A DNA stretch of 37,412 nucleotides, from positions 1 to 37,412 of the IMG/VR virus record IMGVR_UViG_3300020147_000020. The stretch is one strand, 5' to 3'. This DNA comes from a virus. The notes beneath the pieces are model-generated. The model saw nothing but the letters and a program-made list of their open reading frames with translations. It was not told where the DNA came from and did no database searches. Positions 2,185-33,613 of the stretch are shown piece by piece (the stretch's first letter is position 1; the number at the start of each line of letters is the position of its first letter). The position numbers and the translations under genes are program-made.

Positions 2185-2365
2185 CAGTCTTATTTCTCTT
2201 ATTATGGGCTTTAGATATATATCCCCAGAGCCCTTTGCGCTTAAACACGTGGTTTTTCTTAGCAATCTCTCGTCTTTGCTTACGGTTTAGTGAATGACTA
2301 TGCGTATGATCTACGTCTTTTCGATCTTCGCGTTGGTCTTCAGTGTCAACCATTTTCATATCCAT
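2162..2365 (-). CDS. highly basic small protein
   Basis: 67-aa ORF that is Lys/Arg/His-rich (RKQRREIAKKNHVFKRK). Confidence 0.5.
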   Translation of the reverse strand: MDMKMVDTEDQREDRKDVDHTHSHSLNRKQRREIAKKNHVFKRKGLWGYISKAHNKRNKTDEHNKEL

Positions 2366-2367
2366 AA

Positions 2368-2616
2368 TTATTTGCCTTCTTTAATCCTGTTTTCTGAGTA
2401 AGGTACTTGCACAGCGAAAATGTGCAGCTCGTCTCCAATGAATCGCCGGTAGTACGGCTTTACCAGAAAAGTTCCGCCTTTATCTCCAGGGATAATGACT
2501 TTGGCTATCTTTCCTGATTTCATACCGTTTAACATCTTTAGCGAAGTAGAGCTAAACTTTGTACTGATAGTATCTTTAGACTCAAGCATTATATTTAAAA
2601 CGCACACATAGCCCAT
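2368..2616 (-). CDS. hypothetical protein (first ORF downstream of the ORF-free RNA locus)
   Basis: 82-aa ORF with an AAGGAG RBS at about 2626-2631. Confidence 0.7.
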   Translation of the reverse strand: MGYVCVLNIMLESKDTISTKFSSTSLKMLNGMKSGKIAKVIIPGDKGGTFLVKPYYRRFIGDELHIFAVQVPYSENRIKEGK

Positions 2617-2645
2617 TCAGCGCCACTCCTTTTTGTCTCATGATA

Positions 2646-3208
2646 TTGGTTTGACTAGCCAGTTCCAAATATATGACGTACGCAGCACTAGGGGAAATCT
2701 AGCCGCCATATATTCAGAACTGGGTTATTGTGTAGTAGCAGCTGGTAGTAAGGGTCAAACTATCATCGCATATATGACCGTTGCGTTTCTTAGTAGATAG
2801 TAGGGCTGTACAACCCGTGCTTACTACCATGTGCCACTACACAATATCTTGGTGCTGGTAATGAGGCAGGGATTTGACAGGCCGGACAGCGTCACCCGTG
2901 TACACTCCTCATTCGCCCATGATAGTCACCCTGCAGGCCATAACCGTTCACGATATTGACCGGATGTGTTAAGGCTAAGTCAATTTATAGTCAGCGTCTA
3001 CCTATTCCGCCACTCATTACCAGCATTCAGCCAGCAGGCATGGACTGGGTCACGAAAGTGATTGGCTCGAAAGCCGCACCCTGCGCTGTCGTTACCTAAG
3101 CGCGACCCTTCCATGTTGTCCTGCTGGCCATAAAGCAGACAAAACATTATGTTTCACTTCTGTATTTTATCTGCTCATTTAGCCAGTCAAACCAGATTAT
3201 TAATGTAC
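2646..3208 (-). ncRNA. Candidate large structured ncRNA (~560 nt) or structured 5' leader
   Basis: No ORF of 60 aa or more occurs in any frame across 2617-3388. Promoter copy P2 fires into this segment. A closing helix (2647-2656 with 3185-3194) encloses many further helices (see findings). An internal A-C mismatch on the plus strand becomes G-U on the minus strand. Confidence 0.5.
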
Positions 3209-3214
3209 CCTCTT

Positions 3215-3243
3215 ATTGTATTTCGTTAGAAGCTAATTGTCAA
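3215..3243 (-). promoter_or_regulatory. Conserved early promoter, copy P2 (TTGACA-17-TACAAT)
   Basis: The minus strand reads TTGACA ATTAGCTTCTAACGAAA TACAAT, immediately downstream of a terminator. Confidence 0.7.
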
Positions 3244-3284
3244 TGTATTTTATTAATATTCTTTGCCTGGTATACTGAAAATTG

Positions 3285-3339
3285 AAAAGCAGCCCTTTTC
3301 TTACCCTTTGCATTGGGTTTGTCTCCGGGGCTGCTTTTT
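3285..3339. terminator. Bidirectional intrinsic terminator ending the 4621-3389 operon
   Basis: An 11-bp stem (aaaagcagccc 3285-3295 with gggctgctttt 3328-3338) has an inner hairpin and T-runs on both strands. Confidence 0.6.
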
Positions 3340-3388
3340 GCTTTAGTTACTAACCTTAATTTATTAACGAAGCGGGTCTACCTACGGC

Positions 3389-3622
3389 TCATCTAGTACG
3401 TGTTGGGTTCGGCGTAGGGCGAGGAGGAGTAGTTCTTAGTTTCTCATACTTCACCATAGCCTGGTGCATGTAGACATTAGACCCATTTGACGCCAACCCT
3501 GGCGAACCATGCGGTTGCCACCCTTCACGTATATGTGCTCGTATCTCACTCTCTATCCGAACAATATCCCTAATCGTACCTGTTAGTATTGCGTAGTCAA
3601 CTATTCGCTGGTTGTTATTCAC
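3389..3622 (-). CDS. DUF1737-like protein
   Basis: 77-aa ORF with a GWQPHG...QAMVKYE pattern typical of DUF1737 (by recollection). It has a 4-nt overlap with the upstream ORF. Confidence 0.65.
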   Translation of the reverse strand: MNNNQRIVDYAILTGTIRDIVRIESEIRAHIREGWQPHGSPGLASNGSNVYMHQAMVKYEKLRTTPPRPTPNPTRTR

Positions 3623-4954: not shown

Positions 4955-5290
4955 GTGGGCAATAGTTTCAAACAACAAAAACTAAAATTAGAGTGTCGAT
5001 GGTGCGGCAAAAAGTATCGACCTAATGGCACTGAATACTGCTCTGGTATGTGCATCGATATCAAACAGCACATCGAGAGAGACAAGATTAAACGGAGTCA
5101 GCCCTTTATCGTGGAAATGAGACGCAAAAAAGCTCTAAAGCTACGGGAAGACGAGAAACTAACGCCTGTTAAGTCTTACGCTCAAATACTGAAAGCTGCT
5201 GAGAAAAGAAAAAGAAATATGTTTAGAAGCTATATCGTTCCGCCTCCTGGGGCGAAGCCACCCGTTAAGCAAGTAAAGAGCCTGGAGTAA
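4955..5290 (+). CDS. basic zinc-ribbon protein
   Basis: 111-aa ORF with a GTG start and GAGGGA RBS. It carries a CxxC...CxxxC motif and a Lys/Arg-rich C-terminus. Confidence 0.7.
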   Translation: MGNSFKQQKLKLECRWCGKKYRPNGTEYCSGMCIDIKQHIERDKIKRSQPFIVEMRRKKALKLREDEKLTPVKSYAQILKAAEKRKRNMFRSYIVPPPGAKPPVKQVKSLE

Positions 5291-30996: not shown

Positions 30997-31025
30997 AGTG
31001 TATCTCGCTAGAAGCTAATTGTCAA
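30997..31025 (-). promoter_or_regulatory. Conserved early promoter, copy P3 (TTGACA-17-TACACT)
   Basis: The minus strand reads TTGACA ATTAGCTTCTAGCGAGA TACACT. Confidence 0.6.
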
Positions 31026-31624: not shown

Positions 31625-33586
31625 CTAGGCGTATAGCCCTTGTAGTCTTAATAATTCTTTGCTTCCTGGTTCCGAGAAGAGCATATCTCCCTTTCCGGTC
31701 AATTCTTCTGCGCCCTTCTGGTCCAGGATGATTTTACTGTTTATTTCATTAGTCACTGCAAAAGCGATTTTAGTTGGTATATTTGCCTTTATAAGCCCCG
31801 TTACAACGTCCGCAGACGGCCGCTGAGTAGCTAGCACAAGGTGAATACCGACTGCTCGTGCCTTCTGCGCGATGCGCACGATCATAGACTCAACGCTTGG
31901 CAAGGTTTCCATGTGAGTAATCGGCGTTCCGTTCGCTTTGTATCCATCAATTACCCGTACTTTTCTTGGCTTATTACCACCGTTAAGCATTAGGTCGGCA
32001 AACTCATCAATGACAAATACGATATTGCGAAGGCGCTTACCAGTTAGTTTATTGTACTCGGCTAGGTTGCGTGCACCACTGCCGACTAGAAGAGAGTAGC
32101 GATCTTCCATTGTATGAACTACCTTTTCTACTAGCGCCACTGCCTCATCCGCTTCAGTGGCCATATCAAGTCTTGTATGTTCCATAGCAGCAAACTTGGC
32201 TAACTCAACTTGTTTTGGGTCAATAAGCACCAGCTCAAGCTTACGAGAGCTCATCTGAGATGTTAGGGCGGTTAGGATGGTATTTATCATTACTGACTTA
32301 CCAGAGCCCGTTGTGCCGGCTATCAGAAGGTGCGGCATGTCAGACAAGTCGCGATGCACTACTTTACCGCTAATATCAACTCCGACTGGAATATTAAGTG
32401 TATTCTTTATAAAGTGTTGCTCACCAAGATCAATCGTCTTTCGTACCTGGCTAGGCACCTCAATGCCAACCAGGCTAGTGCCTGGGATTGGCGCTTGAAT
32501 ACGCAATGATTTTGCCTCAAGAGCTAAGGCAAGGTCTTTTTCTAGCTTAGCTATTCTAGCCATACTAACACCACGAGATGGCTTGAATGTATAGCGTGTG
32601 ACACTTGGGCCAACGACTGTATCCTGTACTGATACGGGTGCGCCAAACTCCCCAAGCTTAGCCCTGATCTTCTCCTCGGGGCTTAGGTTGTCGTTGTCTA
32701 CATCATCATGTACGCTAGCAACAAAGTTCTTCTCAACAAATACGCGTTGCTCGGTTTTCTTCTTAACGCTCATAGGCCGGTCGGCTTCCATGATACCAGA
32801 GCGATAAATCTCAAACGTGTTACCGCCGTCGAATATATCATCGGGGTTGGGAAGAAATACCATATCAGGGATGCTAACTAGCTTTGTGCAGTCGTTGTAT
32901 AACCGATAGAACATGGCAAAGTCGCCTGGGCTGTCAAACTCATAACTATACTCGCTAAGCTGGCTAGAGCCATCGCGGTTCTTGCTTGTCTTACAGATGA
33001 TGTACCTAACTCGTGCTGGCGCTTCACCGTACTTAGCTTTAATTACGTGATAATCAAACATTGCTTGAATTATCTTGTTGAAGTCGTCCTTGTCGGTATC
33101 AAGCTGGTAGCTAGTGAACTTCCAGTCGATGACTTCAATCTCGCCTAAGTCATTGCGAGTTATCATATCGATCTTAGCCTTCGCGGGGAGTGACAGCCGT
33201 TCGCCATTGTTCACATCAGTAATGTGTTCTTTTATCGTTTGCTCGACACCAAGTATCTCATAGAACTTTGGTTGCTCTTCAAAGAAGAATCTTATTGCCT
33301 GGTTGTAGCTAACAATAATATTCTCGCGGCTACCAGTTTTACCGTAATTGATGCCAGTATCGCTCATCTCGTCGATATACTTCTGACCGGCCTGGATAGC
33401 AGCGTCAATACTCACTCCCTCGTAGTAGCTTTGGATGGCTTTGTGAGCCGCCGTGCCGACTACTGATGACGGTGAAGATAGATCATCCCACACTCCAATA
33501 ACGTAGTTTTTCTTAAAAGCTAATGGGTTTCTCATCAGCTTTGTCATGCTGGAATAGCTCCAGTGATCTATTAATGGTTCGTGCAT
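31625..33586 (-). CDS. PD-(D/E)XK nuclease (RecB/Cas4-like) fused to an FtsK/SpoIIIE-type DNA translocase ATPase
   Basis: N-terminal motifs are WSYSSMTKL..NPLAF, GTAAHKAIQ, AKIDMI...EVIDWKF and QAMFDY. The C-terminus has Walker A (AGTTGSGKS), Walker B (VFVIDEFADL) and LATQRPSADVVTGLIKANIPTKIAF. The start is set at ATG 33586, after AAGGAGAC. Confidence 0.85.
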   Translation of the reverse strand: MHEPLIDHWSYSSMTKLMRNPLAFKKNYVIGVWDDLSSPSSVVGTAAHKAIQSYYEGVSIDAAIQAGQKYIDEMSDTGINYGKTGSRENIIVSYNQAIRFFFEEQPKFYEILGVEQTIKEHITDVNNGERLSLPAKAKIDMITRNDLGEIEVIDWKFTSYQLDTDKDDFNKIIQAMFDYHVIKAKYGEAPARVRYIICKTSKNRDGSSQLSEYSYEFDSPGDFAMFYRLYNDCTKLVSIPDMVFLPNPDDIFDGGNTFEIYRSGIMEADRPMSVKKKTEQRVFVEKNFVASVHDDVDNDNLSPEEKIRAKLGEFGAPVSVQDTVVGPSVTRYTFKPSRGVSMARIAKLEKDLALALEAKSLRIQAPIPGTSLVGIEVPSQVRKTIDLGEQHFIKNTLNIPVGVDISGKVVHRDLSDMPHLLIAGTTGSGKSVMINTILTALTSQMSSRKLELVLIDPKQVELAKFAAMEHTRLDMATEADEAVALVEKVVHTMEDRYSLLVGSGARNLAEYNKLTGKRLRNIVFVIDEFADLMLNGGNKPRKVRVIDGYKANGTPITHMETLPSVESMIVRIAQKARAVGIHLVLATQRPSADVVTGLIKANIPTKIAFAVTNEINSKIILDQKGAEELTGKGDMLFSEPGSKELLRLQGLYA

Positions 33587-33613
33587 GTGTTTGTCTCCTT
33601 TTAACACATATTT

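Follow-up and report, generated by a model that had tools for sequence, protein, structure and literature searches.

A large modular structured RNA with a tRNA-Leu-like module, probably encoded in a gene gap of a phage genome

The virus genome record IMGVR_UViG_3300020147_000020, which was analysed over its full 37,412 nucleotides (nt) and is called the window here, contains a gap at positions 2617-3388 in which the list of open reading frames (ORFs) holds none of 60 amino acids (aa) or more; the longest are of 55 aa (2633-2800, plus strand) and 49 aa (2998-3147, minus strand). We lean towards the reading that the minus strand of this gap, from 2647 to 3208, encodes a large modular structured phage RNA that is not in Rfam and that acts as a tRNA mimic. 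Large modular RNAs of this kind form a new class, which is not in Rfam 15 and is akin to the large phage non-coding RNAs (ncRNAs) and to tRNA-like RNAs. An initial annotation of the same DNA had described the gap as free of ORFs and had proposed a minus-strand, promoter-driven, closed multi-helix RNA of about 560 nt within it. The first statement agrees with the ORF list, and the second is supported by the fold, the strand evidence and the conservation in a diverged homologue, locus L003.

Folding of the minus strand of 2617-3215 gave -225.4 kcal/mol (z = -7.2), a value that none of 100 shuffled sequences matched, while the plus strand reached -193.6 kcal/mol (z = -5.0) and two coding segments of equal length nearby gave z = -2.1 and -2.7. 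The minimum-free-energy (MFE) fold of the minus strand holds a closing helix and five domains, A to E (Table 1), and an inverted-repeat finder independently recovered the arms of the helices that the initial annotation had listed. All 13 of these helices pair as described. The 27-position hairpin has exactly three non-Watson-Crick positions, and the pair 2737/2835 reads G-U in the minus strand but A-C in the plus strand. The minus strand is supported as the RNA strand by the energy asymmetry (it is more stable than the plus strand by 31-39 kcal/mol in the window and in L003), by the G-U pairs and by the orientation of the promoter, as well as by the orientation of the tRNA-like module described below and the fact that related modules are co-directional with their flanking genes.

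The centre of the argument is domain C. The 13-bp helix 2853-2865/3013-3025, initially listed as a plain sub-domain, closes a tRNA-Leu-like module that had been overlooked. Domain C keeps U8, a complete D arm, the T stem and T-loop nucleotides of tRNA-Leu. Its D arm, UG-GCGGAAUAGGUAGACGC (2994-3012), is of the tRNA-Leu type and is followed by a variable arm, and the D-to-T interval holds one 6-bp hairpin (2955-2960/2979-2984) with an 18-nt loop. The T stem has 6 bp (2866-2871/2929-2934), and the T loop, UGACUAU...CAAAU, is divided by an inserted hairpin at 2877-2921. Where a 17-mer of the D arm fell inside a tRNA called by ARAGORN, the tRNA was a tRNA-Leu in 16 of 17 cases; another 103 occurrences lay outside any tRNA call. 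A covariance model of the module, R1, which was built without the window or L003, scored 39.6 bits (E = 9e-8) at 2859-3019 on the minus strand, its sole match in the window. The same model gave 33-37 bits with the canonical modules introduced below and 25.9 bits with a genuine tRNA-Leu. Because the D-arm 17-mer in called tRNAs is so predominantly that of tRNA-Leu, and because R1 also scores a true tRNA-Leu, domain C is derived from tRNA-Leu.

The window carries a form of this module that we define by the order P1, UG-GCGGAAUAGGUAGACGC, variable arm, T stem and loop with hairpin (GCAGGG-UGACUAU-[ACGAG...CUCGU]-CAAAU-CCCUGC) and 3' P1 strand. A single pattern for this form found 23 viral, 81 metagenome and 2 genome loci, corresponding to 57 distinct modules. 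The window matches the pattern, and its core columns equal the consensus except at the base of the inserted hairpin. In an alignment of 46 cores from which the variable parts had been removed, 97.4% of the cells were paired and 178 cells carried double-sided changes, figures to be read with the caveat that members had been selected for at least five flanking pairs and that the 3' T-stem strand was fixed by the search pattern. Double-sided changes occurred in 11 pairs; none of 500 shuffles reached the observed covariation, and slid controls paired in 38-47%. The module is co-directional with its upstream neighbour in 37 of 47 cases and with its downstream neighbour in 39 of 47.

A second, canonical form without the T-loop hairpin is represented by 56 copies and has the layout P1, U8-G9, tRNA-Leu D arm, 9-200 nt of variable sequence, CAUG, 6-bp T stem, loop UGCAAAU and 3' P1 strand. 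The invariant block GGCGGAATAGGTAGACG matched more than 120 IMG/VR contigs, and the 103 occurrences outside tRNA calls belong to a module of this layout. The canonical form is present, unannotated, in cultured Lactobacillus phages (Table 1), where ATCC 8014-B2 and LP65 have it within tRNA islands, and lies near a ROOL RNA in two loci, L048 and phage LP65. Matches to the D arm alone were found in Enterococcus, Latilactobacillus, Weissella, Brochothrix, Bacillus and Vibrio phage records.

The whole RNA has one diverged full-length homologue. L003 (the entries L003, L009 and L222 are one and the same contig) is the closest terminase relative of the window, at 80% amino-acid identity, and the sole terminase relative that carries the RNA; in those at 64-74% identity (L004-L007, L152) it is not present. 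L003 keeps the promoter at the matching relative place, the leader (GUACAUUAAUAA, unchanged in the alignment) and the closing helix. Domains B, C, D and E retain their cores there, in which blocks of 37-44 nt are invariant; the core of domain B is 86% identical. The tips of its helices are swapped for unrelated hairpins, and hairpin A is replaced by another, longer structure. The closing helix of L003, UUUGACUAGC/GCUAGUCAAA, has an A-U pair in place of the G-U pair of the window and encloses a cargo that is longer by about 330 nt; the extra domains of L003 amount to about 370 nt. The closed architecture of the fold is the same in L003, where the minus strand has z = -8.8 and the plus strand -4.4. 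Two pairs of hairpin E differ between the two sequences by double-sided compensation (A-U, A-U to G-C, C-G), and four others exchange G-U for a Watson-Crick pair or the reverse. The early genes that flank the RNA are mostly too diverged between the two genomes for blastn, and the DNA of TerL and portal is 69% identical. Since conserved blocks persist in the RNA while flanking early genes have diverged beyond blastn, we conclude that the RNA is under nucleotide-level constraint. With two full-length sequences, covariation outside hairpin E is thin. Among 50,697 phage records no DNA similar to the locus was found in near or distant mode, and no cultured phage was similar; a search of IMG/VR with the neighbouring proteins returned no relatives. 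Logan and ENA assembly contigs that encode exactly the proteins of the window are identical to it over the locus and offer no variation to use. L130 has an 18-mer match with no similarity beyond it, which we treated as chance.

The 27-position hairpin (domain D) had initially been listed as one of five sub-domains; what was missed is its probable membership, as a divergent copy, in a widespread stem family. Domain D is similar to a recurrent hairpin of L003, L084, L121, L145, L147 and L207. We define this "GUAGUA" family by an outer stem ending in GCGUA, a GUA bulge, the inner stem GUGCUGGUAGUAAG/CUUGCUACUAGCAC and a CA opposite the bulge. A 19-mer from the recurring hairpin matches 45 viral contigs in IMG/VR (L237-L277), from which the consensus of the closing stem reads ACAUUAACAAUUAAGCGUA-GUA-GUGCUGGUAGUAAG-[cargo 30-300 nt]-CUUGCUACUAGCAC-CA-UACGCUUAAUU, with a ACAUUAACAA leader. 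Motifs of the ACAUUAACAA type were found 5' of conserved closing stems in other contigs, and a leader motif of this kind also lies before the closing helix of the window. In domain D, UGGUAGUAAG...CUUACUACCA is combined with a GUAGU/ACUAC outer stem, but the register and the internal loop are different, and the 19-mer pattern does not match it. L003 contains one canonical GUAGUA copy and one D-type copy. The P1 stem of domain C in the window (UGCUGGUAAUGAG) likewise reads as a divergent copy, and, judged by sequence, domain D and this P1 would both be divergent members of the conserved closing-stem family.

Pairs of the outer closing stem co-vary, and G-U forms the step between G-C and A-U. 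In the inner stem there are two conserved G-U pairs, with 81 G-U cells compared to 4 A-C cells; the closing-stem motif therefore works as RNA on the gene strand. The enclosed cargo is hypervariable: L261 and L270 have a tRNA-like module in this place and L084 a B-like one. In nine contigs, flanks of 30-35 nt are nearly identical around cargo that is unrelated. Long imperfect duplexes with an asymmetric internal loop are also found as rRNA-operon processing stalks and at T7 RNase III sites, where they bracket cargo in a polycistronic transcript; the closing stems, being long imperfect duplexes around cargo, may be analogous. String searches of the literature returned no described counterpart of the conserved closing-stem sequence.

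Several further arrangements of the closing stem were observed. In L269 the cargo of the stem (between 7674 and about 7925) is a Shine-Dalgarno (SD) sequence and a 66-codon ORF, not structured RNA, so that the 5' and 3' ends of this small cistron would pair. L243 and L263 have two closing-stem elements in tandem with a ACAUUAACA linker between them. The next gene in L241, L262, L263, L269, L270 and L271 encodes a small single-pass membrane protein of 64-77 aa.

In addition to these two families, domain B contains a module that recurs elsewhere. This B-like module (AGGUNACGACAG...GGCUUUCGAGCCRAUC, whose hairpin has a UUCG tetraloop) lies at 3047-3108 in the window, at about 5160-5260 (minus strand) in L084 and at 6172-6232 in L150. 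It is also present in L219; its hosts are unrelated contigs, including an Acidobacteria metagenome-assembled genome, and the L084 copy is enclosed as cargo by a GUAGUA-type stem.

At least six contigs, namely L084, L135, L147, L133, the window and L003, have large closed RNAs in which a closing helix is combined with tRNA-like module, GUAGUA hairpins and B-like module, and the closing helices of these relatives differ in sequence. The initial annotation did not recognize this mosaic of exchangeable modules across the whole RNA. The large RNA of the L084 type had no DNA match among the 50,697 phage records. A search of E. coli genomes was negative too.

The comparison with known RNA families supports the assignment to a new class. 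Rfam 15 gave no match at gathering thresholds over the whole window; at E <= 10 with relaxed filters, positions 2300-3500 of the window and 6100-7300 of L003 gave only meaningless miRNA-type hairpin matches. ROOL (RF03087) gave no match at its threshold of 99.1 bits in the whole window, nor at E <= 10 in these segments of the window and of L003, while the same tool found it in L048 (122.8 bits) and in LP65 (128.4 bits). GOLLD (RF01998), HEARO, OLE and raiA were negative at the gathering threshold as well as at E <= 10, the positive control being for ROOL alone. ARAGORN called no tRNA or tmRNA gene in the window, and RF00005 had no match at E <= 10 over 2300-3500. The closing stems had no Rfam match in 12 loci scanned (about 120 kb), nor did the tRNA-like modules in the loci scanned for them. 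Whether the RNA was ROOL, GOLLD or something new had been left undecided in the initial annotation; as neither covariance model matches and the positive controls recovered ROOL, a new class is the better reading. Searches of the ROOL/GOLLD, tRNA-mimic and conserved-string literature returned no description of these modules in the searchable literature.

With ROOL and GOLLD (PMC12286853, PMC5737381) the RNA shares a length of 550-1000 nt, many helices and junctions, a location in phages, the lack of a linked protein and an association with tRNAs, but no covariance model matches, and the architecture is a mosaic of exchangeable stem-closed modules instead of one conserved core. The tRNA-like domain of tmRNA has the same topology as domain C, with 5' acceptor strand, D-arm region, large insert, T arm, 3' acceptor strand and no anticodon. 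In domain C, however, the D arm is of the full tRNA-Leu type and not reduced, P1 varies from 6 to 23 bp, ARAGORN makes no tmRNA call, and G3-U70, a conserved ACCA and a tag reading frame are absent. YrlA RNA is likewise an ncRNA found in phages that keeps the tertiary nucleotides of the D and T arms without an anticodon and is a candidate substrate of tRNA enzymes; it is circularly permuted (T arm, closed "acceptor" stem-loop, D arm) and adjoins Ro60/Rsr (PMC4201824). We rejected a YrlA or Y RNA on topology, as domain C has D before T and an open P1, and on the lack of an Rfam match. Neither the scanned proteins of the window nor the clustered neighbours included a TROVE protein, and no other linked gene was seen. 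Phage tRNA-Leu genes share with the module an identical D-arm segment of 17-19 nt that includes U8, as well as related T-loop nucleotides; the module differs in that it has no anticodon arm, a 6-bp T stem, a T loop that is UGCAAAU or split by a hairpin, and no tRNA call by ARAGORN or Rfam.

How might such an RNA act? From the sequence we infer both a function and an excision from the operon transcript. The RNA would be made early, as the 5' part of that transcript, and would then be cut free by host endonucleases, with the A/U-rich leader ACAUUAAUAA as a candidate site of the RNase E type and the long duplex stems as candidate sites of the RNase III type. The leader would fit the RNase E consensus, RN|WUU. 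The freed RNA would persist as a stable particle whose tRNA-Leu-like elbow could dock onto host factors that read the shape of a tRNA and not its anticodon; RNase P/Z, the CCA-adding enzyme, LeuRS, the ribosome and tRNA-directed defence nucleases are candidate partners. We hypothesize that the RNA is a tRNA mimic or decoy that benefits the phage.

A number of points weigh against this proposal. There is a single diverged full-length homologue, and the helices outside domains C, D and E rest on very little covariation. The RNase E and RNase III sites are candidates assigned by consensus. Without a terminator, and with the SD sequence and ATG of the next gene within 30 nt, the RNA could stay a 5' leader. 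The P1 stem ranges from 6 to 23 bp and neither a discriminator nor a CCA is conserved, so that simple processing by RNase P, or aminoacylation, is disfavoured. With a hairpin between positions 55 and 56, the T loop would present a changed face of the elbow that RNase P, T-box RNAs and the ribosome read, and in the window the base of this hairpin (2877-2921, minus strand) is CAUGG...CCUGU compared to the family consensus ACGAG/CUCGU, which L003 keeps. Finally, no partner protein was found to be enriched near the module. At the same place, 2877-2921, an alternative GGCC/GGCC pairing would give a pseudoknot with the T stem. Aminoacylation was considered and not adopted, since the length of P1 varies and A73-CCA is not conserved, with A at position 73 in 29 of 54 canonical copies.

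Could the whole system consist of stem-closed RNA cassettes? The leader ACAUUAAYAA and the closing stem would then surround interchangeable cargo, which could be the tRNA-Leu mimic without anticodon, another fold or even a small ORF, and the cassettes would be excised from operon transcripts and could be concatenated into ROOL-sized particles with the tRNA-Leu mimic as effector, for instance bound or charged by LeuRS or serving as a decoy against tRNA-directed immunity; large versions would perhaps self-assemble as ROOL and GOLLD do. We regard this extended scheme as speculative and rather unlikely in its entirety.

The main alternative to a tRNA mimic, which we consider unlikely, is that the element is a cis-acting structured leader on an early mRNA, acting as a stabiliser against 5' decay, as processing "punctuation" that defines mRNA ends or as a put-like antitermination element that allows RNA polymerase to transcribe through the long gene block. 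The element comes after a putative terminator and a fresh promoter, and no terminator precedes ORF 2368-2616, whose SD sequence and ATG follow the closing helix by 30 nt in the window and in L003. Related stems are often directly followed by an SD sequence and a small ORF, and the module runs in the direction of the surrounding operons. A leader role is, however, not apparent where the modules stand free between ORFs or lie in tRNA islands; exchangeable cargo of up to 500-900 nt goes far beyond the needs of known leaders or put RNAs, and a stabiliser would not account for the preserved nucleotides of tRNA-Leu.

It is quite improbable that the locus holds, instead of one large RNA, a cluster of separate small stable RNAs and of tRNA genes that are unusual or decayed, comparable to the RNAs of the T4 tRNA cluster, which a helix brackets by chance. 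Such a cluster would fit the tRNA-Leu origin of domain C, the residence of related modules in tRNA islands and the fact that every domain is closed by its own stem. Yet the tRNA searches of the window were negative with both tools and the anticodon arm is absent. Moreover, L003 keeps the closing helix around a much longer cargo, and analogous but different closing helices enclose the sets of modules in L084/L135 and L147.

About equally improbable is a role at the level of DNA, in which the element would mark recombination or transposition boundaries (cassette ends or repeats resembling miniature inverted-repeat transposable elements) or an origin or single-strand initiation signal, and the RNA fold would be a by-product. 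The nine contigs with near-identical flanks around unrelated cargo look as expected for cassette exchange, one cargo is an SD sequence with a 66-aa ORF, and tandem copies exist; furthermore, inverted repeats that bind one protein co-vary too, and the plus strand likewise folds better than chance. Against this stand the strand-specific mismatches of the inner stem and the G-U intermediates of the outer stem, the energy advantage of the minus strand, and a tRNA-like module that is meaningful on one strand only and whose orientation tracks the direction of the genes. No transposase, integrase or replication gene was linked to the element among the neighbours examined. We therefore disfavour a DNA-level cassette role, although the conserved flanks may have it in addition. 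A very divergent ROOL or GOLLD RNA, to which size, ornate fold, phage context, the tRNAs that GOLLD sometimes carries in its linker (PMC12286853) and the canonical modules near ROOL would all point, is highly improbable, because neither model matches the window or L003 even at E <= 10 with relaxed filters while the same tool readily scores ROOL elsewhere.

Few bacterial or phage RNAs as large and elaborate as the proposed tRNA mimic are known, and their functions are open; the locus adds a class to them. Unlike ROOL or GOLLD, it offers a readable clue in its conserved core of tRNA-Leu origin. The analysis also exposes two unannotated module families that are absent from Rfam 15, the tRNA-like module and the closing stem. 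If the mimic does engage LeuRS, RNase P or a tRNA-targeting defence, this would be a new phage strategy, open to direct tests in those cultured Lactobacillus phages that have the canonical module.

Table 1. Features of the RNA locus in the window, and canonical modules in cultured Lactobacillus phages
Feature	Position	Strand	Details
Closing helix bracketing all domains	2647..3194	-	2647-2659 with 3182-3194, 13 bp; inverted repeat and MFE fold
Hairpin A, variable, peripheral	3133..3176	-	In MFE fold
Domain B	3029..3129	-	Stem 3030-3038/3120-3128 around junction with hairpin GGCU-UUCG-AGCC
Domain C, tRNA-Leu-like module without anticodon arm	2853..3025	-	13-bp P1 stem; model R1
Domain D, 27-position hairpin around about 67 nt of cargo	2726..2846	-	Inverted repeat, pairing check
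Domain E hairpin	2659..2723	-	2659-2678 with 2704-2723; inverted repeat, pairing check
Promoter TTGACA-17-TACAAT (sigma-70-type; P2 of the initial annotation)	3215..3243	-	11/12 consensus positions
Terminator-like inverted repeat closing the upstream four-gene unit	3285..3338	-	11-bp perfect arms, 32-nt loop, U-rich tail
Single-stranded leader motif ACAUUAAUAA	3197..3206	-	Just 5' of closing helix
SD sequence AAGGAG (2626-2631) and ATG (2614-2616) of the 82-aa ORF 2368-2616	2614..2631	-	Sequence, ORF list
Canonical module, phage Sha1	L234 2501-2591		
Canonical module, phage ATCC 8014-B2	L235 2501-2610		Flanked by two tRNA-Arg genes
Canonical module, phage LP65	L236 about 2450-2537		In tRNA island also holding ROOL (L236 3687-4261)

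The RNA is located at the head of a long leftward gene block, directly downstream of a near-consensus sigma-70 promoter. This promoter, P2, had been proposed initially and was confirmed directly upstream of the folded RNA; it is the top consensus match within the first 6 kb. A near-identical second copy, spacer included, lies at 30997-31025 on the minus strand (TTGACAATTAGCTTCTAGCGAGATACACT, compared to TTGACAATTAGCTTCTAACGAAATACAAT at 3215-3243). The spacer common to both copies suggests a common operator or regulator site. As for the terminator that the initial annotation had placed upstream at 3285-3339, the inverted repeat with its U-rich tail is present, but the terminator scan made no call, as its loop is too long. 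Identity to L003 in this region is 74%. On the downstream side, the start of ORF 2368-2616 sits about 30 nt past the closing helix, and the terminator scan found no terminator between the fold and this ORF, nor at the corresponding place in L003, where the SD-ATG arrangement is the same (GUAAGGAGACAAAAUG).

The proteins of the window phage include a Mu-like portal, a RecT recombinase and an FtsK/PD-(D/E)XK protein, and no integrase was seen among the window proteins scanned. The FtsK/PD-(D/E)XK protein has 660 aa (31625-33607, minus strand) and consists of an N-terminal PD-(D/E)XK nuclease fused to FtsK alpha and FtsK/SpoIIIE ATPase domains; L007 has this fusion as well.

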